From Leucoraja ocellata (lineage: Eukaryota), in assembly GCA_036785375.1 (NCBI GenBank), contig JAWMAR010000201.1, positions 186,001 through 250,000 on the forward strand: a stretch of 64,000 bases of DNA. Reading direction: 5' to 3'. Below the pieces are notes generated by a model, which did no database searches, had not been told where the DNA came from, and saw only the letters and a list, made by a program, of their open reading frames with translations. This document shows, one piece after another, positions 2,082-54,955 of this stretch (position 1 is the stretch's first letter; each line of letters starts with the position of its first letter). The position numbers and the translations under genes are program-made.

Positions 2082-2131
2082 TCATTCAGTCTTGTGAGGC
2101 CTGTCTGCAGTTCCACTGACAGGGTGGGCGC
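2082..2131 (-). CDS. Gene A exon 5, cytoplasmic tail [16 protein letters not shown]
   Basis: Branch-point-like cactgac, long pyrimidine tract and cacag acceptor. In-frame TGA at 2084-2082. Conserved in gene B. Confidence 0.75.
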
Positions 2132-8100: not shown

Positions 8101-11100
8101 GGCCAGCCCCTTCTTCATGCCTCTGTAGTCCCCTTTACTCAGCTGCAATACTGACACATCCGATTCTCCCAATTAAATTGTAGATTAAAATTTATCATGT
8201 TGTGGTTGTTACCTCCTAATGGTTCCTTTACCTTGAGTTCCCTTATCAAATCCCGTTCATTACATAACACTAAATCCAGAATTGCCTTTTCCCTATTAGG
8301 CTCCAGTACAAGCTGCTCCAAGAATCCATCTCGGAGGAACTACAAATTCCCTTTCTTGGGTCCAGTACCAACCTGATTTTCACAGTCACTCTGCATATTG
8401 AAATCTCCCATGACCACCGTTGCATTGCCTATTTTTAAATGCCAATTTTATCTCTTGATGTAACTTGTACCCTATATCCTGGCTAATGTTTGGGATCCTG
8501 AAAATAACTACCATTAGACTCTTTTTCCATTATAATTTTTCAGGTCTATTCACAATGACTACATCTTCTGATCCTATGACACCCTTCGCCAAGGACTGAA
8601 TTTCATTCCTAACCAACCCCACTCCCTCTGCCCACCTTTCTGTCTTTCCGATAGGACGTACACCCCTGAATACTTGAATGGCCAAATGGCCTACCTACTC
8701 CTAGAAGTTATAAACATGATCAGCTGATGCCAAGTCGTAAAGACATGACAAAGTGTTCTCCAAAAGACAGGGGGGGGGGGCTGATATCTGACCACACCTC
8801 CACTAGAGGGTGCATGTGGGGAGGAGGAGCTCATCAGGTATGAAGAGCAGGATGTTGTAAAATTATTAACCATCCTATATATAGGTTCCGAAGTTCATAA
8901 GCGATAGGAGCAGAATTAGGCCATTCGGCCCATCGTCTATTCCGCCATTCAAACATGGCTGATCTATATTTCCCTTTTAACCCCATTCTTCTGCCTTCTT
9001 CCCCTAAATCCCGTTGAAACATTGTATGCCCAGTGGCAGGAAAATCTCACCAATCGTGACTCCCTCACTCGGGGCCAGGCATGGTCTTCATAGGCTTTCC
9101 TGACATCTTGGAGGCTGCGACAATGGCTGAAGGGCCAACAACCCCAGTCCTTTAAGTTGAGACTTAAAACTCATCTCTATTCCCAAACCTTTCTTGACAT
9201 CATCTGAGCGAGGGCTATTTGTAGTGATGTTTGTATTTAATCTATGAACCACTGTTGTGTAGCGTTAGTACCTCCACCAATGTAAACCACTTTGGCCAAC
9301 GAGAGTTGTTTGTTAAGTGTGCTATAGAAATAAAAGTGACTTGACTCCCCTCCCCGGTGTCCCGTCCCAGAGGTGCCCGGGGCGGCCCGGGATTTCCAGC
9401 TCGGCTCCCTACGACACCGAAAACCTGCTGAAGATGGGCAGCTGACGGCCCTGCTCGATACGGGGCGACTCGGAGCCGCTGCTGCTGGAGTCGTCCTCGT
9501 CGGAGAGAGAGTCTGCAGAAGGACGCCTGCCGGCCATGGGCAGGCCGGGTGCTCGCTGGAGCTGCTGTTGGTGCTGCTGTTGGTGGTGCTGGCGGCAGCA
9601 GCAACCTCCTCCCCCTTCTTTGCCCAGCCCCAAGCCGAGTCATAGCAAAAGGATTTGAGTATAGGAGTAGGGAGGTTCTACTGCAGTTGTACAGGGTCTT
9701 GGTGAGACCACACCTGGAGTATTGCGTACAGTTTTGGTCTCCTAATCTGAGGAAGGACATTCTTGCCATAGAGGGAGTACAGAGAAGATTCGCCAGACTG
9801 ATTCCTGGAATGTCAGAACTTTCATATGAAGAAAGACTGGATAGACTCGGTTTGTACTCGCTAGAATTTAGAAGATTGAGGGGGATCTTATAGAAACTTA
9901 CAAAATTCTTAAGGGGTTGGACAGGCTAGATGCAGGAAGATTGTTCCCGATGTTGGGGAAGTCCAGAACAAGGGGTCACAGTTTAAGGATAAGGGGGAAA
10001 TCTTTTAGGATCGAGATGAGGAAAACATTTTTCACACAGAGAGTGGTAAATCTCTGGAATTCTCTGCCACAGAAGGTAGTTGAGGCCAGTTCATTGGCTA
10101 TATTTAAGAGGGAGTTCGATGTGGCCCTTGTGGCTAAAGGGATCAGGGGGTATGGAGAAAAGGCAGGTACAGGATACCGAGTTGGATGATCAGCCATGAT
10201 GATATTGAATGGCGGTGCAGGCTCGAAGGGCCGAATGGCCTACTCCGCACCTATTTTCTATGTTTCTATGAGTCCGGGCCAGCACCAACCACAGTCTTAC
10301 GCCGCCCCCTCCCCCTCTCTCCCCCTTTTCCCCTCCTCCCCCTCGGGGTTGTGGATGAAGTGGCAGTCGGTGTGGGTACCGTAGGGGCAGAAGCCGGTGC
10401 TTGTACTTTAGGTGGCGGCAAAGGGAGCGCGAGGGCGAACTGCCACTTGTCGCCTTAGCGGCCCATCGGGGAGCGGGTTCCTCTGGAGTTAGAGCGGGTT
10501 TGGGCTGGAGTTGGCGCTGGCTGTGGGTTCTCCGTGCTGGCGGTGAGCCTGGGGGCCGGCGTCCCGTCGTCAGGAAGTCTCCTGCTGCCCCTCATGCGGG
10601 GATGGGACACTAGAGTGGGGTTGGGGAGAGACGGTCCAGTGGCGGGTTGGCAGCACTTGCGGCGCCGGGGACACGGGTTCGATGCTGGCTGCGGATGAGA
10701 GCCGATCTTCCCCACCCTCCGGTCTTCTACCCCGGTCTCCACCCCCCCCCCCCCTCTCCTCCCCACCGACCTCCCCCCCCCCCCCCCCTTCGGTCTCTCT
10801 CCCCCCCCCCTTCGGTCTCTCCCCCCCCCCCTCCCGTCTCTTCCCCCTTGGTCTCTCCCCCCCCCCCTTCAGTCTCTTCGCCCCCCCCCCCTCGGTCTCT
10901 CCCCCCCTCCCGTCTCTTTCCGCCCCCCCCCTTAGACCTCCCCACCCCCCTCCGGTCTCTCCCCCCCCACCTCCAGTCGTCCCACCCCCCCCCCCCCGGT
11001 CTCTCACCCGCTCCCCCCCTCCCCCCGCCGGTCTCTTTCCCCCCCTCCGGTCTCTCTCTCCTCCCCCCTCCAGTCTCCTGGGACGTCCGCGGCAGTCTCA

Positions 11101-14100
11101 CTCACCGTACACTTCCAGTCGGACTCTCGTCAAAGTTTCATCTCCTGAACTTGTAACAACAACCACCTCGTAAACACCAGCGTCCTTTCTCCGTAGATCA
11201 CGGATTTCCAGGCTGAAGTTCCCGCGGTGAAGAGTTACCCGTCCCATGTAATTGGCGTTCTTGTACTCAATATTCCCATTCCTGTGTACCGCTATCTTTA
11301 ATCTGGGTGATGTCCTCCTCCACACAACTTCCTCAACGTCCGATGTGACTGTGATGCCAACAGGTAAGGAGACCGAGTGTCCCCGAGCTCCGGTCACGGT
11401 GTCAGCGGCGGCCCCAGTCCCAGCTGAGGAGACAAGAGAGGCAGTCAGCAGGAGAGCTCAGAGACTGGAGGAGGAATCGGAGCTGGGAGAATCACAGATC
11501 ACAGGAGCAGGCCATGCGGCCCATCGTCTGGCTCCCGGCTCTGTTAGAGACCCGGCCCACATCTGTTTCCCTATACTCCCCAGAGCCCTACCATTCACGG
11601 TGTTTGCACTACTTTTTTTACTCCTCTCACAATGCATTGCATCATCTTTATTAGTGATACATCCATCTGTCATTGTTCCATCCATCCTATCAGCTCATCA
11701 ATATCATCCTGTAGTCTCCAGCTGTTGTCCTTTATGTCAACACAATAACCAATGTTTGTGTTATCTGTGAATTTATTAATCACACCTCCTACATTTACAT
11801 CCGTTACTAATGTGTCAATAGACTTTATGGGTCACAGCACTGATCTCTATGGGACATCGCTGATTGTAATCTCTCGATCACTGAAGCAGCCTTCCACCAT
11901 CATTCTGCTCCCTATTATCGAGCCAATTTTGCCAACTTGCTCTGGGTCCCATGGACCTTTAAAATTTGTCTAGTTTCCAATGTCCAAGGTCTTACAGGTA
12001 GGCCGGTGGATTATATGCCCTAATTAATATATATTGTCACCACTTCTTAATAGGTCACAGTGGATTGACCACAAATAAAACCAAGCTGACAATCTTTGAC
12101 GAAACCCAGCCTTTCAAAGTAATTAATCATGTCTTATTTTTTTCCAATAACTCCCCTACCTCTGATGTTAGGCCTGTAATTACTGGAGCATCCTCGATGT
12201 ACTTCACTCCTAAAGTTAAGGTTCACCATCAAGGACAAATGCGTATACCTTCACCAGGCACCCTGTGGCTGCGTACTAAAGACAGAGCCTGGCCACAAAA
12301 TGTGGCTTAAGCCCAAAGGCGTGCAGAATTCCAAAAAGATTTTTTGTTTTTTTAATTAAATATGTTATTTACAGCTTTATTATTAACATTATAACCTAAA
12401 CTATGAAAATGAAAAAAAGAAAAGAAAAAGAAAACAAGAAAGAAAAAAAATAGATAGTGAAAAGATAGATCGAAAAAGAACAAAAGAAAGTCCCCTAAAC
12501 TACCAAAGTAGTGTGGCAGAAAGATATAGAAATAAGAAAAAAGAAAGGTGGAGATATACCTTGCCCCTCGTCCCCCCCCCCCCCCCCCCCCCCCCCCACG
12601 CCCACCTCATCCAACCCAGCATCGGATTTAAATTTAAATTTGTGTTGCACCATGCTATTGTTGTAAGAATTCGGTAAAGGGTGTCCATGTCTTAAGAAAT
12701 TGATCTGTTTTTTCCGCCAAGACAAGCCTAATGTTTTCCAAATGTAGTGTCTCAGACATGTTTGTGAACCACATCTTCACTGTAGGGACTGTTGTGTCTG
12801 TTTCCAAAATTTAAGTATTAATTTTTTCGCCATTTTCAGACCATAGTTAAGGAAACGTCTTTGAAATATCGTTAGCTCAGACATACCTAGTGTGATCAAT
12901 TTTATGTTGTGATCCAATTTAGTTTAAAGTATTTTAGAAAATATATCAAAAATTCCCCTCCAGAAGTTTTGTAATTTTGTCCAGGAAACAAAAGAATGTG
13001 TTATGGTTGCTTCTTAGAGGAGACATTTATCACAGATAGGAGAGACATTTGGGAAGATCTTGTTCAACTTAGACTTTGAATAATAGAGTCTATGCAGTAT
13101 TTTAAATTGTACTAGTGAGTGCCTAACATTAAGAGAACAGTAATGCATACAGTGGCTTGCAAAAGTATTCATACCCCTTGAACTTTTCCACATTTTGTCA
13201 CGTTACAACCACAAACGTAAATGTATTTTATTGGGATTTTATGTGATAGACCAACACAAAGTGGTTCATAATTGTGAAGTGGAAGGAAAATGATACATGG
13301 TTTTCACATTTTTTTACAAATAAAAAACTGAAAAGTGTGGCATGCAAAAGTATTCAGCCCCCTTTACTCTGATACCCCTAAATAAGATGCAGTGCAACCA
13401 ATTGCTTTCAGAAGTCACCTAATTAGTAAATAGAGTCCACTTGTGTGCAATCTAATCTCAGTATAAATACAGCTGTTCTGTGAAGGCCTCAGAGGTTTGT
13501 TAGAAAACATTAGTGAACAAACAGCATCATGAAGCCCAAGGAACACACCAGACAGGTCAGGGATAAAGTTGTGGAGAAGTTTAAAGCAGGGTTAGGTTAT
13601 AAAAAAATATCCCAAGCTTTGAACATCTCACGGAGCACTGTTTAATCCATCATCTGAAAATGGAAAGAGTATGGCACAACTGCAAACCTACCAAGACATG
13701 GCCGTCCACCTAAACTGACAGGCCGGGCAAGGCGAGCATTGATCAGAGAAGCAGCCAAGAGGCCCATGGTAACTCTGGAGGAGCTGCAGAGATCCACAGC
13801 TCAGGTGGGAGAATCTGTCCACAGGACAACTATTAATCGTGCACTCCACAAATCGGGCCTTTATGGAAGAGTGGCAAGAAGAAAGCCATTGTTGAAAAAA
13901 AGCCATAAGAAGTCCCGTTTGCAGTTTGCCACAAGCAATGTGGGGGACACAGCAAACATGTGGAGGAAGGTGCTCTGGTCAGATGAGACCAAAATTGAAA
14001 TGTTTGGCCTAAATGCAAAACGCTATGTGTGACGGAAAACTAACACAGCACATCACCCTGAACACACCATCCCCACTGTGAAACATGGTGGTGGCAGCAT

Positions 14101-17100
14101 CATGCTGTGGGGATGCTTTTCTTCAGCAGGGACAGGGAAGCTGGTCAGAGTTGATGGGAAGATGGATGGAGCCAAATACAGGGCAATCTTGGAAGAAAAC
14201 CTGTTAGAGTCTGCAAAAGACTTGAGACTGGGGCGGAGGTTCACCTTCCAGCAGGACAACGACCCTAAACATACAGCCAGAGCTACAATGAAATGATTTA
14301 GATCAAAGCATATTCATGTGTTAGAATGGCCCAGTCAAAGTCCAGACCTAAATCCAATTGAGAATCTCTGGCAAGACTTGAAAATTGCTGTTCACAGACG
14401 CTCTCCATCCAATCTGACTGAGCTTGAGCTATTTTGCAAAGAAGAATGGGCAAACATTTCAGTCTCTAGATGTGCAAAGCTGGTAGAAACATACCCCAAA
14501 AAAGTTGCAGCTGTAATTGCAGCGAAAGGTGGCTCTACAACGTATTGACTCGGGGGGGCTGAATACTTTTGCACGCCACACTTTTCAATTTTTTCACATA
14601 GTCTCCTATTTGAAGATATCTGAAGTAATGACTACATTTCAAATGATATTTCAACTGTAATTCTTGAAACGAGAGGAAGGTCCCCATTTCATAAAGGTCT
14701 CCCAGCTTTTGAATTCCTAAGCTTTCCCATTGTACAAACGCCTTGTCTAAAGTAGACGGTTTAAACAAGGGATTATTGGCGATTGGTAAGAGGAGAGATC
14801 AATTTCTTAATTTAAGGATAGATTTCAACTGCTTCCAGATTTGTAAAGTGCTAGAGTTGGATGATCAGCCATGATCATATTGAATGGCGGTGCAGGCTCG
14901 AAGGGCCGAATGGCCTACTCCTGCACCTATTTTCTATGTTTCTATGGATTAACGGATTTTTCGATTTCTTCAGATGTATTGGAGAGAGAAGAATCGCCCC
15001 TATATTGAAAGGCAAACAATCTTATCTCTCCATTTTTATCCAGTTTACTAGTTGGCATGCATCGTCCATCCAGTAGATTACATTTTTAATATTAGTTGCC
15101 CAGTAATAGAGAAGAAAATTAGGGAGAGCCAGTCCACCGATTTCTTTAGGTTTAGATAAATGTTGTTTGTGAATTCTGTGAGTTTTATAATCCCTGATAA
15201 ATCACAGAGTCGAGTTATTTAAACAAGTTTTTAGGGAGGAAAATCGGTATTGATTGAAATAGGTACAGGAGTTGTGGAAGGGAAACCATCTTTATGGCAT
15301 TTACTCTACCTATAAGGGAAATCGGAAGTGTTTTCCAAAATTGAATAATGGCATTTAATTTGGTGATTCATGGTGGAAAATTTGCTTGAAATAAGGAAGG
15401 TTATTTTCTAGTCACATAGACTCCAAGATATTTAAATTTTTCCGTAGCAATTCTAAAGGGACATTTTAGGAGGTATGAAGAGTCTTGAGGTTTTATCGGC
15501 ATAATTTAACTTTTGTTCCAGTTTATTCTATACCCTGAGAAGGAGCGAATTGTTCTATGAGATTTAGTATATTTTCGATACTGACTTGGGAGTTGATAAT
15601 ATAGAATGGTACATCGTCTGCAAATAACAAAATCTTATTATTAGTATATTTAGTATTATAGCCATGAATGCTCGGATATTCTCTTATACTTTCAACTAAG
15701 GGTTCTATAGCAGGGGCAAATAACATTGGTGATAATGCGCACCCTTGTCTATTGACCTTGCATATTTGAAATTTAGGTGAGAGAGTTTGATTAGTCAGTA
15801 TTCTGGCAGTCAGATTGTTATATAACAACTTTATCCATGAAATAAAATTTTCTCCTAGGAATTTTTGCAAGAGATATTCCCATTCTACTTAGTAAAATGC
15901 TTTTTCTGCATCTAAGGAAATAATTGATAAGTCTTCATTTATCGTTCTGTGTAAGTTCATTATATTAAACAAGCGTCTCAAGTTATTGAACGAATGTCTC
16001 TTGGGTATAAACCCAGTTTGATCAGAGTGTATTAATTTACTAGCGTACTTACTTAGTCTTCTTGGCAGGGTTTTAGCTAATATTTTCTGGTCTGTATTTA
16101 AAAGAGCTATTGCTCTATATGATCCTGGATCTTCAAGATCATTATCTTTTTTGGGTATCAGTGTAATAGTTGATTCAGCTAAAGTTTGTGGTAATGTCTG
16201 TTCTTTAAATGCGTGTATATAAAGGGCATGTAAGCAAGGAGAAATTAATTCATGATTTTTTAAAAATTCGTTACTGAACCCATCTGGGCCTGCCGTTTTA
16301 CCATTATTCAGTGATTTTATTAAATAACGATAAAACGCCAGGCCTCTTCAATATCTTTTACTGTAATCTGCGCTCCTAATTCTTCGCGTTCCGCCACATT
16401 GAGTGACAGAAGATTGCAATTGTCAAGGACGTTTTAAATCTTTATAGTTTCTACTGAAGTTTTAGATGTGTATACATTTTGATAGAATTTAAAAAATCTT
16501 TCATTGATATCTTTATGGAGTGTAAGCAGCTCACCTTTTTCTGATCTAATTTTTTGGATGGTGTGATCTTTTTCCATTTTTCTGTGCTGACGTGCCAGGA
16601 GTTTATGCAGTTTCATAGCAAAAGGATTTGAGTATATGAGCAGGGAGGTTCTACTGCAGTTGTACAGGGTCTTGGTGAGACCACACCTGGAGTATTGCAT
16701 ACAGTTTTGGTATTAATCTGAGGAAGGACATTCTTGCCATAGAGGGGGTATGGAGAAGGTTCACCAGACTGATTCCTGAAATGTCAGGACTTTCATATGA
16801 AGAAAGACTGGATAGACTTGGCTTGTACTCGCTAGAATTTAGAATTTTGAGGGTGGATCTTATAGAAACTTACAAAATTCTTAAGGGGTTGGACAGGCTA
16901 GATGCAGGAAGATTGTTCCCGATGTTGGGGAAGTCCAGAACAAGGGGTCACAGTTTAAGGATGAAGGGGAAATCTTTTAGGACTGAAATGAGAAAAACAT
17001 ATTTTACGCAGAGTTGTGAATCTCTGGAACTCTCTGCCACAGAATGTAGTTGAGGCCAGTTCATTGGTTATATTTAAGAGGGAGTTAGATATGGCCCTTG

Positions 17101-17976
17101 TGGCTAAAGGGATCAGGAGGTATGGAGAGAAAGCAGGTACAGGATACTGAATTGGATGATCAGCCGTGATCATATTGAATGGTGGTGCAGGCTCGAAGGG
17201 CCAAATGGCCTACTCCTGCACCTATTTTCTATGTTTCTACGTCACCAAATTCAAAGTTTTTTGCTTAGTGTATTGAAATAACTTAATAACTCTTGCAGAA
17301 AGAATTAGATTTAACTTGAATTTTAATACTGCTATCTTATTGTGTTTGTCAATAGAGGGATCGGTAGCATTTTCCAAATCAAACTGTCTAATCTGTTCCT
17401 CTAATTCCAATTGTTCCGACCGTTTTTTTTAATTTTGATACGCTTGATATGAGATAATAGAACCTCTGATAAAGGCCTTAAAAGATTCCCATAATAAAGA
17501 GGCCGAAATACCAGGTGTGTCATTTGTCTCATAAAATAGTTCCATCTGTTGCTTCAAATATTCACAGGGCAACTTCATTTATACATTTCAAATTTGTTGA
17601 TCCCACTCCCCCACGGTTTAATTTAAAGCCCTCTCTACAGCCCTGTTTAAGCAATTCCACAGGATCCTGGTCCCATCATGGTTCACATGCATTCCGTCCC
17701 ATGGGAACAGCTCCCTCCTTCCCCAATACTGATGCCAGTGTCTCACAAAGTGAAACCCAGTTCTCCCACACCAATCTTTCCCATCACGTACCATACCTGC
17801 CCGCACTTATGACAATAAACCCGGCTTGACTTGCTGAGAAGTTTCGAGTTTCCAGTCTGCAAAAGCAAAGCAGTCCCCAGAGGTTAAGTGAAATACAATA
17901 ACTAAATCAGAATAAACTCACGGATTGAGATGGGGAGAGATAGCCAGAAGCAGCTGAGCAGGCACCTGATGTCCAT
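2082..17976 (-). CDS. Gene A: CD2/SLAM-family receptor (SLAMF9/CD48/teleost CD2f-like), 5 exons, 267 aa
   Basis: Exons 17976-17922 (55 nt), 11423-11106 (318), 4974-4693 (282), 4202-4104 (99) and 2131-2082 (50) total 804 nt with no internal stop. All donors are GTGAGT, all acceptors are pyrimidine tract + CAG, and all introns are phase 1. The product is signal peptide, IgV without the B-F disulfide, IgC2 with 4 Cys, TM and a short tail, which is the CD2/SLAM layout. Confidence 0.88.
2845..3990 (-). mobile_element. Penelope-like element fragment (GIY-YIG endonuclease), gene A intron 4
   Basis: [11 protein letters not shown]...[36 protein letters not shown]. Confidence 0.88.
4104..4202 (-). CDS. 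Gene A exon 4, stalk and transmembrane segment ([33 protein letters not shown])
   Basis: 99-nt phase 1-1 exon with tcttctttcaccag acceptor and gtgagt donor. Hydrophobic helix, conserved in gene B. Confidence 0.85.
4350..4612 (+). mobile_element. Tx1-type LINE 3' end remnant
   Basis: Matches 41560-41770, the 3' end of the Tx1 element in gene B, and ends in AATAAA plus an A-rich tail. Confidence 0.7.
4693..4974 (-). CDS. Gene A exon 3, IgC2 domain
   Basis: EPVSGTQI...ICDFTLTC...FTWWR...[10 protein letters not shown]...DICK: EPV start, CxxxLxC, YxCxAxNPVS and terminal Cys typical of CD2-family membrane-proximal domains. Confidence 0.93.
5475..6000. repeat. Unclassified interspersed repeat with a (TAGAA)n end; relatives at ~28815-29400, 49410-49640 and 56200-56480
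   Basis: Absent from the gene B intron. Shares the aacatccaccacagtga...cctcactgtg motif with the other copies. Confidence 0.55.
6270..8650 (-). mobile_element. Old CR1 LINE fragment (duplicate at ~42895-44760)
   Basis: [61 protein letters not shown]. Confidence 0.88.
6941..7404 (-). mobile_element. 5' end of a THAP-domain DNA transposon, inserted in the CR1 of gene A only
   Basis: ORF 7262-7011 [12 protein letters not shown]...FRIPK...RVCSLHF is a THAP C2CH zinc finger. Absent from the paralogous CR1 at ~43575. Confidence 0.7.
9150..9345 (+). mobile_element. L2-type LINE 3' tail
   Basis: tgtaaaccactttgg...gtgctatagaaataaaagtgacttgact resembles L2 (Maui-like) 3' termini. Confidence 0.55.
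9409..10720 (-). pseudogene. ZFP36: ZFP36/tristetraprolin-family pseudogene fragment in gene A intron 2, split by a HER1 insertion
   Basis: 10460-10345 reads [33 protein letters not shown] (decayed tandem CCCH fingers). 9633-9409 ends [36 protein letters not shown] (TTP-family C-terminal NOT1-binding motif). The exact paralogue (ZFP36, L1 or L2) is uncertain. Confidence 0.85.
9642..10269 (+). mobile_element. HER1/CR1 LINE inserted into the ZFP36 fragment
   Basis: [34 protein letters not shown]...; flanked by a GAGTC direct repeat (putative TSD). Confidence 0.92.
10720..11075. repeat. C-rich tandem array of (CCCCC..CGGTCTCT)n
   Basis: About 15 irregular units of ggtctct followed by poly-C. 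G-rich on the transcribed strand. Confidence 0.85.
11106..11423 (-). CDS. Gene A exon 2, IgV domain
   Basis: [20 protein letters not shown]...EVVWRR...[27 protein letters not shown]...VRLEVY: C-strand Trp, SLxIxxLxxxDxGxY motif, no canonical Cys pair. Splice sites ctcctcag| and |gtgagt. Confidence 0.93.
13150..14595 (+). mobile_element. Tc1 (IR/DR-type, DD34E) transposon with inactive transposase 13529-14548
   Basis: TA|CAGTGGCTTGCAAAAGTATT left end and inner DR at ~13333. 340-codon frame with [31 protein letters not shown] and 4 in-frame stops. The right end keeps only the inner DR. Confidence 0.93.
16612..17240 (+). mobile_element. HER1/CR1 LINE 3' fragment
   Basis: [17 protein letters not shown] and the HER1 tail. 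Confidence 0.9.
17922..17976 (-). CDS. Gene A exon 1 (signal peptide [18 protein letters not shown])
   Basis: ATG at 17976, 18 mostly hydrophobic codons plus 1 nt, then a GTGAGT donor. Homologous exons lie at 50412-50358 and 62887-62833. Confidence 0.85.
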
Positions 17977-22238: not shown

Positions 22239-23689
22239 GTGGCAGCGGAGTCAGCGGTGGCCACTGCTGTGGCAGGCATGGTCTGGGAGTGGCCAGCGTG
22301 GGTGCAGCGACAGGAGCAACTGGATTCGGGGCAAGGAAATCTTTTCCAGCCAGAATGTCGGTCCAACAGGGGCAGGTGCAATTTTAGATTTGGTTTTAGA
22401 AAATGGAGGTGCAAAGAATATTTGTTGGTGGTGGGGGTTAGTTATAATTTTACTAAACCAAAATAAGTCAGCAAAAGTGAACCAAAAGAACAGTTAAATC
22501 ATTCTTGGGGCAAGGAAAAATACTCAAGGTGGTGCGGTATCAACATCTTCACTCAGAGAGCAAGGGTCAGGATCTGCCAAGTCTAGGCCAAGTCCTTAGG
22601 GGATTAAAAAGGTGCAAGGGATATTCCTTATTGGATGAGGAAAATAATAGAAGAGCAAGGGGATTATGCTCTTGCTGTCAATATCAGGAACCTCAGACCA
22701 GACTGGACTGAACTCCCTGACTACACCCCCGATCTGTGAGCTGATCAAATTTTTGTAGGGGAGAGGTTGTATGACCCAGGATGTGCACGATGCCTGCATT
22801 CGCTCTGGAACACCGTTGGAGTATTGTGAGCAGTTTTGGGCCCCATATCATTGAGAGGATGTGGAGGGGTGCTGTATCCACTCGTGGATGAATCTAGGAC
22901 CAGAGGCCATTGCCTCAGAATAGAACAACATACCTTTAGGAAGGAGCTGAGGAGGAATTTCTTTAGTCAGAGGGTGATGGATCTATGGAAGGCAGTACAA
23001 GGTAGCTTGAGAGGAAAAGATAGATCAGCCATAATTGAATGGCAAATAGACATGAGCCTAATGGCCTAATTCTGCTCCTATCACAATTTATGAATTAGGC
23101 CATTAGGCTCATGTCTATTCGCCATTCACACTATCCCAGTCTGGGTCTGTGCCCATCACAGTCCTAGGGCTGCTGCTGTTGGCAGGTTCATATTTAACAG
23201 GGAGTTAGATGTGGCCCTTGTGGCTAAGGGGATCAGAGGGTATGGAGAGAAGGCAGGTACGGGATACTGAGTTGGATGATCAGCCATGATCATATTGAAT
23301 GGCGGTGCAGGCTCGAAGGGCCGAATGGCCTACTCCTGCACCTAATTTCTATGTTTCAAGGCAGTTCTGAGCTGGGTCACGCTCAGGTGCATAAGGGACG
23401 CCGGGGCCAATGATAGGATGATAAAAGATATGGAACTGGAGAGAATTCCCAGGGTACAGATCCACAAGCAGGACACGGTGGAGAGTTTGTGGATGAGTGG
23501 GGGCAGTGGTCAGGAAGGGGGCGCAGCACACGTGTGGAGTTCATGGATTTATCTATAATTTCTTCTCTAATCTGGAACCTGTGGGTCCAGAGACACCAGC
23601 CAGGGAAAACATCCTTCCCGGGTCTAGCCTGTCAAGCCCCGTTTAGTATGAAAACCTCAAATAAATTGCATCTCATTCTTCTGCTAAAT

Positions 23690-25014
23690 TCTACACAGTT
23701 CAGGTGGATCAGCCACAAAACTATATTTGAGAAATTGGGTTTCTCATCCATCCAGTTAAATTTAAGTTGATACCAACTGAAATTATTGATTATTGGGATT
23801 TACCTTTAACTCTATTAATTTGTCTGGGACTCCGCCCTGAGGCAAGAGATTGGAATTAACTCAAAACCTCCCAGGCCCAGGTACGCAGAGATATGGGATG
23901 TTAACATTGTGCTACGTCGCTTCGCCGGTGGGCTCCTGCTACATCCCTGCCCTTGGTCAAACTCACTTACAAAGTGGTTATGCACATGGCGCTGAGTTCA
24001 GCGCAAAGGGTCCAGTCATTGCATAAGCTGTGACTGGACAGGATGATTATATCTGCAGGCAAAATATCATTCTATGTTTATGACTTAGTCAAGCAGAGTA
24101 GACCAGGGGCATCAGGTCTCAAACTAGATTTGTTGGCATATCCCATGGACCTTCGGTTGTGTGTGGTCACACATCTACACCAGTATGTTAAGGTCACTAA
24201 GAGCCTTAGAGACTCTGAACTAGCAATGTTTGTTAGTTACATATAGCCTCATAAGAAGGGATCCGTACAGACCATCTCCAGTTGGTTAAAACGGGTTCTG
24301 GCTTATACAGGAGTGAACACTGACATTTCAAGTCTCACTCCACCAGGGCTGCAACAACATCAGCAGACGATATGGACGTTTCGCGGGACCAAATCCTAGT
24401 GGCTGCAGGATGGTCAAACGAACGATTTCCCAAACATTTTAGAACTAACCCATTGCCAGACCGGGGGTATTTGCCAACTCTATTTTAGGTTCTGTTTTAT
24501 AGTTTCCTCCCGGTTGAAGGGGGTTACTATTATCATTATTTGTTCATTAAAAGCATCAACATGTCTATATCTATGTCATTCCTGAATGCATTATTAATGT
24601 TCACTCATCATTGGTTAATTAATGCAGTGTGTGACGCATGGACTCGTCTCCACGGCATGAAATCATAGAGCTAGGAAATCTTCACGTAGTCACTTACATG
24701 ACTCCAAAGTAAAATAGTAAAATTAAACGAGAACTTGCCAGTTTGAAGTTTGATCTTTATTTTATGAGGAGTTACGTTGAGGGATTACGTGCCCTCCACT
24801 CCCAACCCTCTATCATAAAGGTCAGCTGGTATTCTAGTTTTCTCTAATCTTACTATGTTTAGTTCAACAACTGTTATCTGTGATTTCAGACCGCTGCTTT
24901 GAAGATTGATGCGCATGCGGGCTGGCGGGTTCTTCACGTAATCCCTCAACGTAACTCCTCATAAAATTAAGATCAAACTTCAAACTGGTAAGTTCTCGTT
25001 TAATCTTACGATTT
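23690..25014 (+). mobile_element. DIRS retrotransposon 3' part (tyrosine recombinase, ICR and terminal inverted repeat)
   Basis: LVKQSRPG...LCVVTHLHQYV...TISSWLKRVL..GV...SHSTRAA...AGWSN; ~80-bp inverted repeat 24712-24791 / 24935-25014. Confidence 0.85.
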
Positions 25015-25285
25015 AAAATCAGAAGAAAGATTGTCAGCATGAGAGGATGAGGAGGAGATGGGTTTCTGAAGGATATTGTTTCAGTGGGGTTGAATAAGGC
25101 AGAGTTTGGAATGGGGACGTTTATAGGGGAATGAAGTGAAGGGTGATTGGGGAAGTTGAGGCAGGTTGTTTGGGTTACGGGGCCTTTTTCCGAGCCTGAG
25201 GTGGGATGGAGTGGATCCGTCGATCCTGTGTCATTCGTTGCGCGAGGATGGAGTAATCACAGAATATTTTCTCCTCTCCATTTAG

Positions 25286-25413
25286 GTAATGTAAAGTTTA
25301 CAACTACATTGATCGCTGTCATTATGGTCATTGCCAGTTTGGGCCTTGTCATTGTGAACCGGATGAAATGCCATGGTGCCGCAGGAGTGCAGCAGGAGGG
25401 GACGTGCCAGCAG
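25286..25413 (+). pseudogene. Orphan transmembrane exon of a SLAM-type receptor
   Basis: ctcctctccatttag acceptor, GNVKFTTTLIAVIMVIASLGLVIVNRMK, then an AG|GCAAGT donor. Lies downstream of the inverted intron-2 homology (23130-23545). The frame does not join the next exon without a frameshift. Confidence 0.55.
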
Positions 25414-25919
25414 GCAAGTGCCTCACCCCGTGCCCAGAGCGCCAAGGTGTTCCCAGCCCATGGGAGGGGGTAGGGCAGGATTGGGGGGGTGAGGGGGGGG
25501 GGGGGTGTTCAAGATACAGGAAAGTGTCTCAGACATTCACTCTCTGGACTAACCCAGGAGTTGTGGTTGGGGATGGGTGGGAAACAAGATACAGGAATGT
25601 GTCTCACACACCCACCCTGAGAGGTCACAGGTTTGGACAGGTGGAAAAGGCGCTGGTGTTCGTTTGAGAGAGGCTGGAGATGACAGGAAGAGGGACAAAG
25701 ATCCAAGAAAGGCTGTGGAGGGGGGGGGGGGGGGGGGGAGAGAGTGGCGGGTTGGAGGAGGAGGCTGAGAGGTTAGAATGGGCAGACAGTTGGTGCAGCG
25801 GGCATGTCGGGAGGGCGACAGAGAGAGGGGTGATAAGGAAGGGTCTTGATGTGACTAGAGTGTGAAGGAGTTGCTGCATATTGTAAGCATAGCCTCATAC
25901 CTGTCCCTCTGCCCCACAG

Positions 25920-26062
25920 ACCCAGGGCCCACAGAGACAGAGACTATCTACACACAGGTCCAGCAACCACAGACATGCCCTGCAAAACTGCAGCCTCCGG
26001 AGGGAAACGAGACGGTAACGGGACACGTACTGAGCCATGGTGGAGGGGATCAGTGGGACTGA
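25920..26062 (+). pseudogene. Orphan cytoplasmic exon carrying an ITSM (TIYTQV)
   Basis: ctgtccctctgccccacag acceptor. The phase-1 frame DPGPTETETIYTQVQQPQ matches the SLAM ITSM consensus TxYxxV/I. Confidence 0.6.
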
Positions 26063-26225: not shown

Positions 26226-26239
26226 CTGTATGATACTGT

Positions 26240-27047
26240 TGTAACGACACCAAACGTGGTGAATAAACAGATGCTTTATTCAGGTGTTACATGCAGGTTT
26301 GGTCCACTAACATAATTGTCATTGATGCTGTAGCTGAGCGAGGGTGTTGTCTCGAGCTCAGCTACCTGTTGACAAGGTGAGATATGCTTATGTAGCAGGA
26401 CACACCACTTAGCCAATGGCGTCACGTGACGGCCTTCGTAACTACTGACGAGGGTTCGACCATAAGTGTTCTGTGTATCAGCTGACCTCTCAGCTCCGGT
26501 GGGCAGCAGCTGGTGGGGGAGTGGCAGCAGCCGCGGCCTCTCAGAATCAGAGGTTGGCTCCGTGCATATCATGCGGGAAAGCTTGGCAGCCGTCACACAA
26601 GGCCTGGAGCGCGCCCCTTGACCCGGGCGGCCTGCGGCATACCTTGGAGTAGGGCCAGGTTGGCGGCAGCGTCGTTCTGCAGGGGTGGGCTGTCGGCTGC
26701 AGACATCAGGTCTCCCGAGGCTGTGTGCGTCGGGAGAAATCCAAAATTCCAATTTGGATAGTCGGGGTCACCAATGTAGCGACACCAAATGTGGTGAATA
26801 AAAAGTTGCTTTATTCAGGTGTTACATGCAAATTTGTTCCACTAACATAATTGTCATTGCTGCTGTAGCTGAGCGAGGGTATTGTCTCAAGCTCAGCTAC
26901 CTGTTGACTGGGGTGATCTCAAGGTGAGATATGCTTATGTAGCAGGACATAAGCCTTAGCCCCTTAGCCCATGATGTCACGTGACAGCCTTCGTAACTAC
27001 TGACAAGGGTTCAACCATAAGTGGTCTGTGCATCAGCTGACGCCACA
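26240..27047 (-). mobile_element. Internally deleted LTR (Gypsy-type) element with two LTRs
   Basis: Direct repeats 26240-~26485 and 26775-27047 with TG..CA ends, CTGT TSD on both sides, and PBS TGGTGACCCCGAC (complementary to the tRNA-Trp 3' end) at 26773-26761. Confidence 0.85.
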
Positions 27048-27619
27048 CTGTCAACTTTCCTGGGACCTCAAGCAGTGGATCACTGGTCGCCCCTGGAAAG
27101 TCCCCGCACTGTGAGACAGGAGACATCCATCCTACACCCCAGCCCGTGATCCACTGATCTGTCTGAGGCAGCAGTCATACAGCACAGAAGACCCTTCGAC
27201 ACACCATGCACATGCTGACTATCAATTTACTACACATGGCTGTCTGTGCCTTGGTCATTCAAGTGCTCCATAAGGTGTGAGAGTCTCTGCATCCACCACC
27301 CTCTCATGCGGTATGGTCCAGTCTCCAACCACCCTCTGGGTGAAACAGTGTTTTCCTCAGATTGCTCTTATTCCTAACCTTATGTTCTCTCAGTGTGGAC
27401 ACATCTATTGTAGGGATAGGGAACAAACTGATGAATCTCTGCACTCTCACCAGTGCAATCACATCCCTCCTTTAGTGTGGTGCCCAGAACTATACATAAT
27501 ACTCCCGCTGTGGTCTAATCAAGATTTTATAAAGTTGTACCATAACCTCTCTGTTCTGTATTAAATGTCCCAGCTAATGAACCCCACACACAGGATGGTG
27601 TGTTGCCTCCCTGGTGCCT

Positions 27620-35848: not shown

Positions 35849-35898
35849 TCATTCAGTCTTGTGAGGCCTGTCTGCAGTTCCACTGACAGGGCGGGCGC
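35849..35898 (-). CDS. Gene B exon 5, tail [16 protein letters not shown]
   Basis: Same acceptor and stop as gene A. Candidate minus-strand AATAAA at 34972-34967. Confidence 0.75.
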
Positions 35899-38800
35899 CT
35901 GTGGGGAGAGAGATAGGAGAGAAGTCAGTGCACCCTACGAGAGTCCACATGAGATGAAACACCTGTCCGTTTACCTTCACCCTCTATCCAGTGACCCTAG
36001 CGTTCCTTCCAGCTGAGAAAGACGTTCACATGCACCTCCTCTAACCTCAATTACTACATCCAGTTTTCCCAATATAGCCTCCTGTACACTGGGCAGGTCA
36101 AGCATGGACTCTTTGGTTCAATGAACAGTTACGGTTGGTCCGCCAATGCCAACAGTATTTCCCATTTGCTATCATTTTAACTCATAACTGAATTCATATT
36201 ATCCAGCCCAACGGCTATACAGGAAGCAATGACGAAACAATTAAACTATAGGACATTCGGAAGAAGGTTGCAATCCATATGTTTCAAAACACGTGCCAGG
36301 TACTGGCAGCAACGTTTAATGACACAGCGATCACATAATCTCTGATGGTATTGATGACAACATTAAAGTTTGGGACCTCTGACAAAACAGGTTAATTTAT
36401 ACCATGCGTGGTCATACAGACTCAGTGACTGGTTTGACACTGAGTGAGGTAAAAGAGAACATCACCATCCTCGCTGACCACATCCTGGAAGCCATGGGGA
36501 AGGGTCGAAGAACAGTACCATGACTACAATCTCCCAGGAGGATGGTGGCCTTTCGGGATGTTTGGAGGCTGGTGGACAACAGTGGTGCACTGGGAACTGA
36601 CCATTGGGACAATCTTGTTGGCCATAATATTACAGCCTTCTATGTGCGGATTTGCATCACGACCATGTGGACTTTACTAAAGCCTGTGGGCCGGATGTGA
36701 TGAGGTAAAGCCTGTGGGCCGGATGTGACGGTAACCAGATTGTTCAAGGGATGGAATGTTATATGAGAAATTTTCAAGTTCATGTACGAGAGCGGTTCTC
36801 AGATGGGTTCAGACGTGATCAGCGCCGCAGATGGAGGCAGAGAGAGAGAGAGATGTGTGCTGCTGTAAAACTGGACCCTGGGCATACCGAGACAAGTATT
36901 CTTTTTGTCCTCTCTTGCCAAAAAAACAAATTTGTAACTAAACAGATGAGTGAGCCTTTTTCTGTTCTACTAGTCGGATCCTTGAGCCTAAGGTGGACAC
37001 AAAATGCTGGAGTAACTCAGCGGGACAGGCAGCATCTCTGGAGAGAAGGAATGGGTGATGTTTCCGGTCGAGACTCTTCTTCAGATTGCTGGCAGGGGAG
37101 TGGGCGGGACAGGGATAGAATGTAGTCGGAGACAGTAAGAGATGGGAGAACTGGGAAGGGAGCGGGGATAGAAAGATCGGGAAAGCAAGGGCTATTTGAT
37201 GTCAATATTCATACCGCTGGGATGTAAGCTACGCAAGCAAAATATGAGGTGCTGTTCCTCCAATTCGCGCTAGGACTCACTCTAAGAATAGAGAAGGCCC
37301 AGAACCGAAAGGTCAGATTGGGAATGGGAGGGTGAGTTAAACTGCTGAGCAACCGGGAGATCAGGCAGGTTAAGGCAACTGAAACGATCGCTGAGCCTGC
37401 GCTTGGTCTCACCGATGTACAGAAGTTGATACCTGGAACAGCGGATACCATAGATGAGGTTGGAGGAGGTGCTAGTGAACCTCTGCCTCACCTGAAAAGA
37501 CTGTTGGGGTCCTTGGATGGAGTCGAAGGGGGAGGTATAGGGACAGGTGTTGCATCTCCTGCAGTTTCAGGTGAAAGTACCTGGGGAGAAGGTGGTTTGA
37601 GTGGGAAGGGCCGAGTTGACTAGGGAGTTACGGAGGAAAGGGTGTCTGCAGAAAGCAGAAAGGGGTGGAGATGGGAAGATGTTGCCAGTAGTGGGGTGGT
37701 GAAAGGATTATATGTTGTATGCAGCGGCTGGTGGGGTGGAAGGTGAGGCCAAGTGGGACTCTTTCCTTGTTGCGAATGGGGAGCAAGAGCAGAGCTGCGG
37801 GATATCGAGGAGACCCTAGTGGGAGCCTCATCTATAATGATTGAGGAGAGCATCATCTATAATGGAAGAGTCGAAATTCCATTTCCTAAAGAATGAGGAC
37901 ATCTCCGATGATCATGGAAAGCCTCGTCCTGGGTGCAGATGCAGCATAGACGAAGGAATTGGGAGTAGATGACAGTCTTTACAGGAAGCAGGGTGGGAAG
38001 AAGTGTAGTCTAGATATCTATGGGAGTCAGTAGGTTAGTAGTAGATGTCAGTCAATAGTCTGTCTCCTGTGATGGAGACGGTGATATTCAGAAACGGTAG
38101 GGAGAGTTCGGAGATGGTCCAAGCGAACCTGTTTCCTTGCTGCAGCTACTCCAGCACTTTGTGACCTTTTCTGAATTAAACAATGGCTGCAGTTCATTGT
38201 TTCTACATTTTAACTGCAAACACTTAAAAACCGCACTCACTGATGATGTGGGTGGCGACCGTGACGGAGATGAGAATCAGAAGCAGGACGGCTGCGACCG
38301 TGGCCCTCAACCAACATCCACAGAGACAGCTACTCAACCCTGGTGAAAGAAGAGGGGATCACTCATCAGAGAGACTGCACTGGGCCTTGTTCACAAACTC
38401 AGCAAGAACTTGGGGCCCACATCGTAGACTGACTTCAAATAACTGCGACAGCGCTGTCCATTCACACACTCCCAGAACATGGACAGACACAGAGTGAAGC
38501 TCTCAAGGTCGGATACAGAGTGGCACTGCTCCGACAGCTGATAAGTTTATAAGTAACCCTTGAAAGGTTTTCGTTGAAGGAAGAGGGACAGAAATAGTGA
38601 GATTTCAAGGTTAGACATAACGTCGGACTGCAGGGACTTCTCTTTTCAAAGGATTTCTCCATTTAGTGAGGAATTCCAGCGCTTTTCTGGAGTTCCGTAG
38701 GAGCGGCAGTGGCTGGTGAATTACCAACTGTACCTGGAGACTGGGAGTCGGACAAAAGCGGTGTTTGTGGTTTCGAGCATCATAACTCTGCTCCCATACC

Positions 38801-41800
38801 ATTTTGCCCAGACCAGGTTGCCTGGGCATAAACAAAGAGAAGGTACTTTTTGAATCCGGCAGTTTCTGGAGGCTCGGAAGACCTGGTAAAAGCCTCCTAA
38901 AAAGCTGCTCCCAGCAGAGAAGATAAGTGTGGGCATTTTCCTTGCTTGGCTGGAGAGAACTGCTTCTGCTGCTCTAAAAGAACCAGTAACAACAGCAGTT
39001 TGAGCTTAAAAGCGGTCTCAGTCTAAAAGACTCCGAGACCGCTTTTAAGCTCAAACTGCTGTTGTTTCCGGTTCTGGTTTGTACCCCAGGTACAAACTGG
39101 AAGGCACTCCCGTGAGGGCGGCCCGGCTCCGGAGGTTATAGAGGAGGTTGAACTCCTTGTTGACCTAATATCATTGGAGGAGTTGACTGGTGCCTTGCAC
39201 AGGAGGGGTAAGGCACCAGGGCTAGATGGGCTGACCATAGAGTTTGTTAGAACCTTCTGGGATGTCCAAGGGGGATTACACAAAGGTCCTAGGGGAGAGC
39301 CTGGTGACCGGGGAGATGCCCCTATTGTGGTGCAGGGCAGTCGTTGTCCTGCTAACCAAGAAGGGTAATCTCCACCTGTTGAAGAACTGGTGCCCGGTCT
39401 CTCTCCTCAGTACAGAGTATAATGTTTTTGCCCCATCAATGGCAAATCGCCTGGGTTTCATGCTGTCCTGACTGATCCACCCGGACCAGTCCTACACAGT
39501 CCCTGGCTCGTCCATTCAAGAAAACATCTACCTGGTTAGGGACCTGATCCAATTGTCCCAGGGGGCTGGTCAGTCAGTTGCTTCTCTATCCCTTGATCAG
39601 GAGAAGGCATTTGACAGGGTAGATCATCACTACCTTTTTGGGACATTGCAGGCGTTTGGATTTGGACCGCATATTGTGGCCCGGGTCCGGCTTTTGTACG
39701 CCCCAGCGGAGTGCCACGTAAAGTTAAATGGTTCGTTGTTGGCACCCATTCACTTTGGGAGGGGGGTACGCCAGGGGTGTCCCATGTCTGGTCAGTTGTA
39801 CTCAGTCTGTGTGGAGCTGTTCCTGTGTCTTCTTCGGAGGCGGTTGACAGGCCTGACTTTGCCAGGACCGGGAGTTGGGGGTTGTTCTCTCGGCCTACGC
39901 CGACAATGTGCTCCTTATGTTCACTGACCCTGTTGCCCTGCGGAGGAGGCGTGAGTGCCAGCATGTTTTCTCGGCCGCATCCTCCACCAGGATCGACTGG
40001 AGTAAGTGTTCCAGACTTTTGGTGAGTCAGTGGCAGGTGGACTCTCTACCGGAGGAGATGACATCTTATGCGTTGAGCACTACACAACTCCTCTACCTGG
40101 GCATCTACCCAAATCCCACTGAGGATGCTTGGCCGACAAACTGGCAGAAGCTGGAGACGAAAGTCGTCGCCTGGCTGGGACGCTGGTCAGTCTTGCTCAG
40201 AGGGCTTGACCTTTGAAGGTAGAGTGCTGGTGGCCTGCATGTTATGGTACCAGCTGGCCACTCTTCTCCCGCCATCTACCTTTGATACAGAAGAGGTTAG
40301 TGAGTTTCCTCTGGGGAGACAAGAAGCACTGGGTTTCCATAGCGGTCCTGAGTCTCCCGTTAGAGGAGGGTGGCCAGTCCTTGCTATGCGTGCGTACTCA
40401 GGTGGGGGCCCTCCGTCTCAGGACCCTGCGGAGGTACGTGTATGCAGAACATCCTCCAAGATGGCACACTCTGACCACGTATATTTTCCGCCAAGGCCGT
40501 TGCCTAGAGGGGGGTTTGCAGATCCCGGTGGCGGGCATCAGTCGACCCACCACATGGAATCTGTACAGTTTCTACCGTGATGCCTTGAGAATTATGAATC
40601 TGGTCACCTTCAGCCAGTGTGCTGCTCCTCAGGGGGAGGAGGGTGTTGTAACTGCGAGGGTGGCCAGTCCTCACCCTGTCATGGTGGGTGTTGAGAAGAG
40701 GCGTGTGCTCGGAATGATTCCGACCGAGCTGACCACCGCGATACCCCATAACCCGTCTCCAACAGCCACGACCCACGAATGAGCCGATCCCAGCTCATTT
40801 CCACCCACCAGTTTAACTCTTCCCTCCTCATTCAGTTCAGCCAGTAGTTGCTGGAGGAAGTTCACACGTGTCATGTGCCCCCTTCCCGAACACTGCCCGC
40901 ACTCATCCACAAACTCTCCACTGTGTCCTGTTTATGGCTCTGTATCCTGAGAATCTCTCCAGTTCCATATCTTTTGTCACACTTGTCAGAATTGCCCATT
41001 GAGACCAGGTCCCGGAATCTTTCCTGGGAGCCGGCCCTACACAACACGAGCCGCCTTTCCAAGATGCCCAGCGTGCCATTCCGTGCAGATTGCTCCTGCA
41101 CACTCTCCATTTCCTCACCCTCGTCTTCCATCCGGACACGCCCTGGCGGTCTGAGTTACCACCTGACGGCGGGAGAGGTCCCCAGTGGAGGTCTCCCCCT
41201 TTACATCGGAGACCTGGGGTGCAGAGTGTTGCACAGAGACGTGGTGTGTAACAGATGTTTAAGTCGATTCACAGACTCGGTAACTGTCTGTAACTTCTGT
41301 GGCAAGAACGAGGCCGTGTACCACGTGTATATGGAGCTTGAGAGGTTGCAGCCCCTGTATGAGTATCTGAAGGGGCTGCTCCTCTGGTTCTGGTTGCATT
41401 TTAGTCCCATGATTCTGGTATTTGGGCACAAGGCAGGGAGTGGGGATTGTCGATCAGGAGGGTAGGATCTCTTTGTCGGTTTGCTCCAGGTCCAGTCAAT
41501 GCCCACACTAAAGTCGGCTGCCTGCCCCTCTTCCAGGCCTATGTCTGTGATCGCATGTCCCTGGAGAGGGAACATGTGGTGTCCACGGGGACTCTGGTGG
41601 CCTTCCATGAACAATGACCTTCCGCATCTTTACAATGAATGCATTGTAAAGATGCCATTAGTGTTTTATGATGATTGCCTGATGCAATGTGACTATTGAA
41701 CGTTTTTGTACTTTCTGGTACACTGTAATATGCAATTATTGAATAAAGTATTTGGAAGGGAAAAAAAAACGTGAAGCTCCCTCTGCACTGTCTCAATGAA

Positions 41801-52713: not shown

Positions 52714-54955
52714 CATCATGGACATTGAAGAAGTTATCAACAACATTTGATCCTGCACAGCTGGGTAGGTGGGCTGAAAATGGCAAATGGAATTTAATTC
52801 AGTTAAGTGGAAGGTTTTGCATTTGTAACATCAAGCACTGTAGGACATTCACAGTAAAAAGAAGGGCCCTAGGAGGCACTGTAGAATGAGGAACCTAGTG
52901 GTACAAAGTAGCACCACAGTTTGCGGGGTGGTGAGAGGGCTTTTGGCATGCGGGTCTTCATCATTCTGAGGCATGTCAGCATTAAGAAGGCCTGTTCCTC
53001 TGCTGTACGTGTCTATGACCTGATGACACTATGATATATCTCTGTCCCTCTCTCTCAAGGGAGATAACTTTACTGACTGGAGTATCGCAGTCCCTCTTGC
53101 TCAGAGGGATATCTGTGCACTGACTATTGTATCACAATCCTTCTCTCTCGGGGGAGATATCTGTACACTGACTTGTCTCTCAGTCCTTCTCTAGATCTGG
53201 CCGGCGTCGGTGGTTGCGACAGTGATGATGTTGGTGGTGGTTGCGGTGACGGTGATGGTAGTGGCAGCGGAGTCAGTCATGGCCACTGCAGCGGCAGGCA
53301 TGGCCTGGGAGTGGGTGCAGTGGGAGGAGCGATTGGAGTGGGGACACAGGCCGCGTTGGCATCAGGACTACAGGACAGAAAGCTATAACTGAAATCTGTT
53401 ATAAAGAGGTCTGTAAAAGCGAGTATTAATAACAAATATCTTATTATTAACTGGGATACATACAGTTAAAAATATATTGATGCAAAACAATTCTGAAAGA
53501 AAAATCAGGAAATTAGGGGGTGGAGGTTAGCATTTTTGTAAAAGTGATCACAATTCAATTTGATTTTGTGACAGAAAAGAACAAAACTAAAATTAAAGAT
53601 TCAAAAATGGAGTCAGGACAATTTTACTAATCCAAAATAAGTCAGCAAAAGTGAACCAATAAACGTAGAGTAAATCACTCTCGGGGCAAAGAAAAATGCT
53701 CAAGATGGTGCAGTATTAACATCTTCACTCAGAGAGCAGGGGTGAAGATCTGCCAAGTCTAGGCCAGGTCATTAGGGGATTAAATAGGCACAAGGGATAT
53801 TCCTTATCAGACGAGGAAAATAATATAAAAGAAAGGGGACTATGCTCTTGCGGTCAATATCAGGAACTGCATATAACCTCGCACCAGACTGGACTGAACT
53901 TCTTGAATACATCCCTGATCTGTGAGCTAATTAAATCTCTGTGGGGGAGAGGTTGTATGAACCTGGATCTGCACGATGCCCAAATTCACTGGAACACCAG
54001 ACCGCATTTGGAGTATTGTGAGCAGTTTTGGGCCCCAAATCTGAGGAAGTATGTGCTGGCATTGGAGAGGGTCCAGAGGAGTTTTATGAGAATGATCCCA
54101 GGAATGATTGGATTAGCATATGATGAGCGTTTGATGGACCTGTACTTGCTGGAGTTTAGAAGGGTGAGGGGGGACCTCATTGAAACTTACCGACTCATGA
54201 TAACCCCGGATAGAGAGAATGTGGAGAGATTATATATCCACTCGTGGATGAATATAGGACCAGAGGCCATTGCCTCAGAATAGGACGTACCTTTAGGAAG
54301 GAGATGAGGAGGAATTTCTTTAGTCAGAGGGTGGTGAATCTGTGGAATTAATTCCCCAGAAGGCTGAGGAGGCTGTCAATTGAGATATTTAAGGCACAGA
54401 TTGATAGATTCTTGATTAGTACGGGTGTCATGGAGTTATGGGAAGAATGCAGGACAATGGTTATATCAGTCATGATTGAATGGCAGAGTAGACGATGGGC
54501 CTAAGGGCCTAATTCTGTTCCTATCACTAAAGAACTATGAACTCATGAACACTATCCCAGTCTGGGTCTGTGCCCATCACAGTCCTAGGGCTGCTGCTGT
54601 TGGCAGGTTCAGGGCAGTTCTGGGCTGGGTCACGCTCAGGTGCATAAGGGACGATAGGATGATTAAAGACATGGAATTGGAGAGGATTCCCAGGGTACAG
54701 GTCCACAAGCAGGACACGGTGGAGAGTTTGTGGATGAGTGGGGGGGCAGTGGTCAGGAAGGGGGCGCACGCAGCACACGTGTGGATTTCTTTCAACTGGC
54801 TGAACTGAAGGTGGATGGATGAGTTAAACTGGTGGGTGGAAATGAGCTGCGATCGGCCTAACATTCACTCATCGCTGTTGGAGACGGGTTGTAGGTATCA
54901 AGGGGTCCATAAAGATCTCCTTTACTCATCTTTTTTCTCTCTGCCCCAACCTCAT

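Follow-up and report, generated by a model that had tools for sequence, protein, structure and literature searches.

Receptors of the CD2/SLAM type are recognized by an IgV domain that lacks the B-F disulfide and by a C2 domain with four cysteines, and we know of no mammalian SLAMF members that occur in Arg-TM, adaptor-coupled forms. Paired MDIR receptors are found in skates, and constitute a different family. The mammalian CD2/SLAM receptors are described as an IgV and an IgC2 domain followed by a TM segment and an ITSM tail (PMC4718992), the ITSM being given as TxYxx(V/I) in a source that likewise defines the ITIM (PMC12151841). In Xenopus, NxxR TMs are reported among the CD2/SLAM genes (PMC4536121), and those of the XFL receptors are reported to couple to FcR-gamma (PMC2413239). 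For receptor pairs of the CEACAM1/CEACAM3 type, Siglec-5/14 and Siglec-11/16, gene conversion is described as focused on the V/N exon and as aided by an inverted arrangement of the genes (PMC2832619). Among cartilaginous fish, a sh2d1a-like gene has been reported in T cells of the bamboo shark (PMC11372145).

Here we describe a broken receptor gene of the skate Leucoraja ocellata in the context of the cluster that surrounds it. The window, a stretch of 64,000 nucleotides, corresponds to C201:186001-250000 (bare coordinates are those of the window, and coordinates prefixed C201 those of the contig), and the receptor family was mapped over C201:1-650000. The feature under study is the broken 3' portion of a gene for a CD2/SLAM-type receptor that carried two tyrosine motifs. 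It is an ordinary pseudogene, the paired-receptor cluster to which it belongs is of a known kind, and it is this cluster rather than the relic that is of interest. The closest named relatives of the window are skate proteins from Amblyraja radiata and Rhinoraja longicauda, which carry the database names SLAM-like, Ly-9-like and CD48-like.

Like the mammalian CD2/SLAM receptors (SLAMF1-9, CD2 and CD58), the skate genes display the same order of domains; unlike them, the tail-bearing skate genes have look-alike Arg-TM neighbours, and they are known by family likeness rather than by one-to-one orthology. The resemblance to the Xenopus CD2/SLAM and XFL genes lies in an expanded family with both uncharged-TM and Arg-TM members, whereas the skate TM, unlike the NxxR type, has an Arg without the Asn. 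As in the CEACAM and Siglec pairs, exchange among the skate genes is restricted to V and involves tracts of 1-2 kb, although these genes represent a different Ig family in a cartilaginous fish. A search of titles and the opening parts of abstracts, whose coverage excludes most subscription papers, returned no description of such a skate system.

Intact receptor genes of the cluster

Exon models of the intact paralogues, together with the public protein P0008, place an N-terminal IgV before an IgC2, a TM and a tail, and their translations display the CD2/SLAM hallmarks of an IgV without the B-F disulfide and a four-cysteine C2. Pfam searches of the family returned V-set and Ig, along with weak matches to Receptor_2B4/SLAM. 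The best PDB sequence matches of the V exon were to SLAMF5 (E 1e-6), followed by CD2 and CD48, while a second comparison placed CD2 first with CEACAM1 close behind, such that the margins of the CD2/SLAM assignment are small. An ITSM tail is present in 31 of the 72 TM-bearing homologues (among 88 proteins).

Two short-tailed Arg-TM receptor genes, each with an open frame of 267 aa, are encoded on the minus strand of the window: A1 (2082..17976; exon model with AG/GT sites, comprising leader 17922-17976, V 11106-11423, C2 4693-4974, TM 4104-4202 and tail 2082-2131) and A2 (35849..50412; exon model). The first-pass annotation had described these neighbours as tail-less, whereas both possess a 16-residue tail without tyrosine. 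The Arg is located at the start of their TM, which reads CWLR and does not carry the NxxR motif. The FcR-gamma-like TM exon lies on the same contig at C201:592449, ~340 kb from the window, and an NDUFS2 synteny probe for linkage to the FcR-gamma/FCRL region gave no candidates and is uninformative.

For both the TM and the ITSM exon of the relic, the genome contains at least two further matches, located at C201:176.3-177.2 kb (+) and at 41.4-42.3 kb (-). Both matches fall inside complete receptor genes, which provides the intact homologues that the first-pass annotation had proposed to look for; the matches listed are receptor genes, rather than sequence unrelated to SLAM-type genes or members of a repeat family. 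I1 (C201:165230-177720, +) sits 8 kb left of the window, and the other complete paralogue, I0 (C201:53454-41005, -), is ~135 kb away. Each is open over 333 aa, with exons in the order leader, V, C2, TM, ITSM exon and last exon, AG/GT sites and a GC donor. A further gene, I3 (C201:331306-310477, -), is open and longer, with a V-C2-C2 arrangement. The tails of I1 and I0 contain TVYAQV (ITSM) and SVYDTI (ITIM-type), and that of I3 contains TIYDTV. P0008, a Logan protein derived from a public transcript contig of 1361 nt, agrees with I1 at 311 of 333 residues and with I0 at 304 of 333; it is spliced as I1, and its GC-AG junction is seen spliced. The earlier proposal that the cluster combines ITSM-tailed with charged-TM receptors therefore stands, with I1, I0 and I3 beside the short-tailed genes A1 and A2. 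Its view of the relic as a lost partner does not, since complete ITSM+ITIM genes (I1 and I0) and the longer I3 are present on the same contig, and the inhibitory receptor class has thus not been lost.

Exons and lesions of the relic

The remnants of the relic are arranged along the plus strand. They begin with a V-C2 intron remnant (22697..23542) that has 76-98% sense matches to family V-C2 introns and contains LINE fragments; within it, the pre-C2 segment recognized at first pass (23127-23542) indeed matches, in sense and at 82-89% identity, the intron that precedes C2 in members of the family. A sense match between the region upstream of the relic and the V-C2 intron of I1 is due to a common LINE that has its better match at another site, and was set aside as uninformative. 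Searches with nhmmer profiles for leader (two types), V and C2 exons on the plus strand between 12000 and 23500 found none. The C2 exon has been removed by a deletion, the junction of which (23542..23582) joins the pre-C2 intron to the distal C2-TM intron: its left side corresponds to paralogue sequence that lies ~170 nt ahead of C2, and its right side to position 1663 within the C2-TM intron (2246 nt) of the intact gene. Beyond it lies a C2-TM intron remnant (23582..23704; 84% identical to C201:175768-175890). The DIRS-type element (~23709..25014) that had been placed where C2 should be is instead inserted in the C2-TM intron, C2 having been lost by the separate deletion at ~23542/~23582.

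The TM exon (25286..25413) is uncharged and has a GC donor, as originally described; it shows 73-74% identity with the TM exons of two intact genes, and three intact paralogues share this GC donor. A frameshift is located just after the TM, near 25381-25388 (position from alignment to P0017), and the exon measures 128 nt as compared to 123 nt in an intact paralogue, which would leave TIYTQV out of frame when spliced at the GC donor. The exon encoding TIYTQV (25920..26014) retains AG and GT sites and an open frame, out of phase with the TM. Its identification as a real exon was upheld by 82-83% identity to two intact ITSM exons (E ~1e-49), though it ends at the conserved GT donor at 26014 and not, as had been assumed, at the stop at 26062. 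A count over all six frames of the window gives 19 occurrences of TxYxx[VI], and so the motif by itself is not beyond chance; it is homology that makes TIYTQV real. The exon set first proposed was also incomplete, having missed the last exon (26229-27157). What is left of it comprises a remnant of the second tyrosine motif (YDT; 26229..26239), with the acceptor and 5' part deleted, and a remainder with stop 27157 and 3' UTR (27048..27300; 82-83% identical to C201:177646-177913 and 41079-40812; tblastn with P0017, E 5e-9). The two are separated by an 808-nt LTR-type insertion on the minus strand (26240..27047), which lies inside the tyrosine motif. Pfam searches of the TM, ITSM and C2 pseudo-exon pieces returned no families.

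The homology of the TM and ITSM exons to complete receptor genes bears out the earlier view that these are the remains of a CD2/SLAM-type receptor with an ITSM; with its ectodomain gone and its ITSM not in frame with the TM, the relic does not qualify as a functional receptor. Compared with 88 fetched proteins, the tail of the relic scored best against P0017 (Rhinoraja longicauda XP_078276543.1, 'CD48 antigen-like'; score 267), followed by P0008 (177), which makes P0017 its closest intact homologue. The two share a juxtamembrane stretch and a long C-terminus, both lost from I1; they differ in that P0017 is an intact annotated model with two ITSMs, while the relic is frameshifted and without an ectodomain. 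This suggests, on best score rather than synteny, that the relic represents a gene lost in this lineage and intact in another skate.

V exon exchange and the origin of the relic

V exons are 96% identical in the pairs I1/A2, I0/A0 (A0 being the Arg-TM neighbour of I0) and I3/g278 (g278 itself has a frameshifted C2), as compared to 93% for I1 versus I0, the other exons of which differ at only 1-4 sites each. Among I1, A2, I0 and A0, eight of nine informative V sites pair an inhibitory gene with its Arg-TM neighbour and none group by class, whereas all ten informative C2 sites group by class, which indicates gene conversion restricted to V; this four-sequence test presumes that I0 and A0 are the true counterparts of I1 and A2, A0 itself being an A1/A2 hybrid. 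A clade of I1 and I0 V exons was rejected (p-AU 0.003), and the high-identity tracts around V extend over ~1.0 kb (I1/A2) and 1.95 kb (I0/A0). The same V grouping, with starred support, was recovered for Amblyraja P0012/P0014 and Rhinoraja P0010/P0018, in trees that combined 12 or 9 genomic V exons with selected proteins; the long-branch g376, g432 and g452 were left out of the tree for the AU test. Between the V exons of I1 and I0 we counted 20.5 nonsynonymous versus 1.5 synonymous differences, small numbers that are given without a formal test. These patterns suggest that the intact relatives of the relic are likely to trade their ligand-binding V exon with adjacent Arg-TM receptors, which by analogy are probably activating. 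As in paired receptors, near-identical ligand-binding domains are found on opposite tail types.

Going by known families, receptors with an ITSM/ITIM tail would act through the recruitment of SHP phosphatases or SAP-type adaptors and the short-tailed Arg-TM receptors would signal through FcR-gamma, while gene conversion between oppositely oriented genes may, as in other receptor pairs, preserve the likeness of their V domains. The relic would then represent a birth-and-death casualty of the paired-receptor cluster, and is predicted to yield no signalling protein. In itself it is minor, as such clusters are expected to hold dead copies. With the intact cluster, the range of conversion-maintained paired CD2/SLAM receptors would come to include cartilaginous fish, which are the oldest lineage to possess adaptive immunity. 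The combination of V-restricted exchange with an excess of amino-acid change in V suggests a pathogen ligand.

With respect to orientation, the relic and A2 lie tail to tail, an arrangement that is also seen for I1 with A1 and for I0 with A0, and the 3' flank of the relic matches the I1-A1 intergenic region segment by segment in the same order (27292-27618, 28240-28786, 29428-29573 and further segments). Given this normal orientation and collinear flank, no inversion is needed, contrary to the proposal that an inversion had broken the gene; no breakpoint was resolved for the loss of its 5' half. The duplicate unit retains, on the plus strand, the pre-C2 intron and a broken, 3'-truncated C2 pseudo-exon (54539..55184, with C2 at 54952-55184), whereas the TM/ITSM exons find no match in it; the first-pass picture of two units preserving complementary halves is true as a description.

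We consider it probable that the relic, the 3' half of a gene for a likely inhibitory receptor, died where it stands, through deletion and decay and not as the result of an inversion. An inversion within the V-C2 intron, splitting V3 and its leader from the C2-TM-ITSM portion before the tandem duplication, appears unlikely. V3 (58335..58655, -) is a divergent orphan V exon: its strand carries no C2 further downstream that would belong to it, and the inverted C2 pseudo-exon is 3 kb away; in both units the spacer behind the Arg-TM leader joins the pre-C2 intron on the plus strand directly, and a broken C2 beside an oppositely oriented V3 at 55-58 kb is compatible with an old inversion. However, the orientation and 3' flank of the relic are those of an intact gene, the leader of V3 is of the other type, that of the Arg-TM genes, and the Amblyraja model P0001 splices V3 as the first V of a V-V-C2 protein. 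The V of P0017 is, moreover, only 48% identical to V3, the lowest value among the close V exons (65-74% for the others), and a clade of the two was rejected (p-AU 0.0005), though conversion can uncouple a V from its tail; V3 is probably not the relic's own V. It is very improbable that the relic still yields a product, whether with the ectodomain of another gene spliced on, as a short membrane peptide or as RNA: the retained TM and ITSM splice sites and the open ITSM frame would permit it, but upstream in the unit there is no leader, V or C2 on its strand, the frame is shifted after the TM, and the last exon is destroyed. As for the possibility that the relic exons belong to a repeat family or that the motif arose by chance, the frequency of TxYxx[VI] in the window speaks for the latter, yet at least three copies including the relic are found, every one in the context of a receptor gene, and with ITSM tails recurring among TM-bearing homologues (31/72) we regard this explanation as practically negligible.

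The contig also contains a second copy of the region: C201:54-103226 is an inverted copy of C201:251592-120835 (96-99.8% identical), and the right arm begins at an assembly gap. The copy is either a true duplication or a second haplotype that was scaffolded in place. A0 resembles A2 in its 5' part and A1 in its 3' part with a switch near the TM exon, indicating that ~34 kb including the relic are absent from this copy. Compatible with death in place, the relic may have been the specific inhibitory partner of A1, leaving A1 as an orphan activating receptor, a tentative reading to which we give not quite an even chance. The A1 V exon has diverged from those of I1 and I0 (83% identity, versus 93-96% for A2 and A0), the V of P0017 is closest to, and groups with, that of A1 (74% identity, versus 65-69% for I1, I0, A0 and A2), and neither the relic nor most of A1 is present in the second copy of the region. 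On the other hand, support for the grouping of the P0017 and A1 V exons (89/74 and 91/72) was not starred, and the relic's own V is gone. More broadly, the skate CD2/SLAM genes could form a paired system with ongoing haplotype-specific V conversion and KIR-like presence/absence haplotypes, in which the relic is the dead partner of A1 and was co-deleted with most of A1 on the second haplotype; we hold this to be possible, if rather doubtful.

Inserted elements and relic sequence in other sequencing data

The insert in the C2-TM intron is an internally deleted fragment of a high-copy retrotransposon on the plus strand, with inverted terminal arms of 80 nt (24712-24791/24935-25014) that are 95% complementary. 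Its DIRS label is presumptive and draws in part on sequence motifs. Pfam searches returned nothing meaningful for the window copy and its frame, and only a weak Phage_integrase match (E 0.09) for a longer copy of the repeat; an RVT_1 match in L072 may belong to an unrelated LINE and was set aside for the purpose of this label. The LTR-type insertion consists of two ~250-nt direct repeats (85% alike) around a short core, with a 4-nt target duplication, and a genome-wide search for this repeat gave 1239 first-look candidates, of which 40 were scored.

The relic is not an artefact of assembly, as the TM exon region recurs in Logan contigs under three organism labels and both LTR junctions are bridged in one run of organism B; the contig check covered 4 of 24 runs and the read check 4 runs, one of them common to both. 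None of the runs listed as carrying relic sequence was an RNA run. In three RNA runs of organism B, sampled at ~1-6% of each and hence too shallow to count, no reads fell on the TM exon, and the two that fell on the ITSM exon have at least 18 other differences each and are paralogue-like. Among the indels listed, a contig of organism C shows two additional bases where the TM frameshift lies, which may give a different frame there. At the DIRS junction, contigs of X1, X3 and X7 extend 25-29 letters into the element, below our 31-letter rule, which offers a hint of sharing, and at the right LTR junction a contig of X7 crosses by 30 letters, again below this rule.

Intact ITSM-type receptor genes and their GC donor

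Contig C201 carries two complete ITSM+ITIM receptor genes, I1 (G000:C201:165230-177720, + strand; L023-L024) and I0 (G000:C201:53454-41005, - strand; L011-L012), whose V exons are unlike at 22 of 318 sites, nonsynonymously in nearly all cases, as against 1-4 unlike sites in each of their other exons. The GC donor 3' of the TM exon was found to be kept in all four tail-bearing genes, the distant I3 among them (window:25414, L024:6475, L011:2156 and L032:2155).

A large inverted copy on the same contig

The segment C201:54-103226 represents a large inverted copy of 120835-251592 at 96-99.8% identity, with an N gap where the right arm begins, and is possibly a haplotig. The relic, a broken 3' half of a receptor gene, is absent from this copy via a crossover between the short-tailed Arg-TM genes A1 and A2. 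Inverted repeats are clustered in a hairpin-like arrangement at C201:251532-253601, where the copy terminates.

Further family exons and mobile elements

The Arg-TM gene g278 (G000:C201:261217-286985) has a V exon 96% identical to that of the likely inhibitory I3, a frameshifted C2 exon of 281 nt and a second, 5'-truncated C2. More family genes, with uncharged TM exons, lie at C201:364-544 kb (V at 376.9, 432.1, 452.2, 485.5 and 540.4 kb). At C201:606514-624184, four C2 exons stand in tandem with a period of ~5.8 kb, near which no V exon was found. An FcR-gamma-like TM exon (G000:C201:592449-592535; L069) is linked to the receptor cluster; a second zeta-family match lies on contig C175.

Approximately 20 partial V-exon matches, covering mainly the 3' 60 residues and in some cases containing stops, are scattered over other contigs (C43, C172, C975 and more), possibly as cargo of a mobile element. 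Within the window, the frames at 13146-14580 encode what is, judging by its motifs, probably a Tc1/mariner-like transposase.
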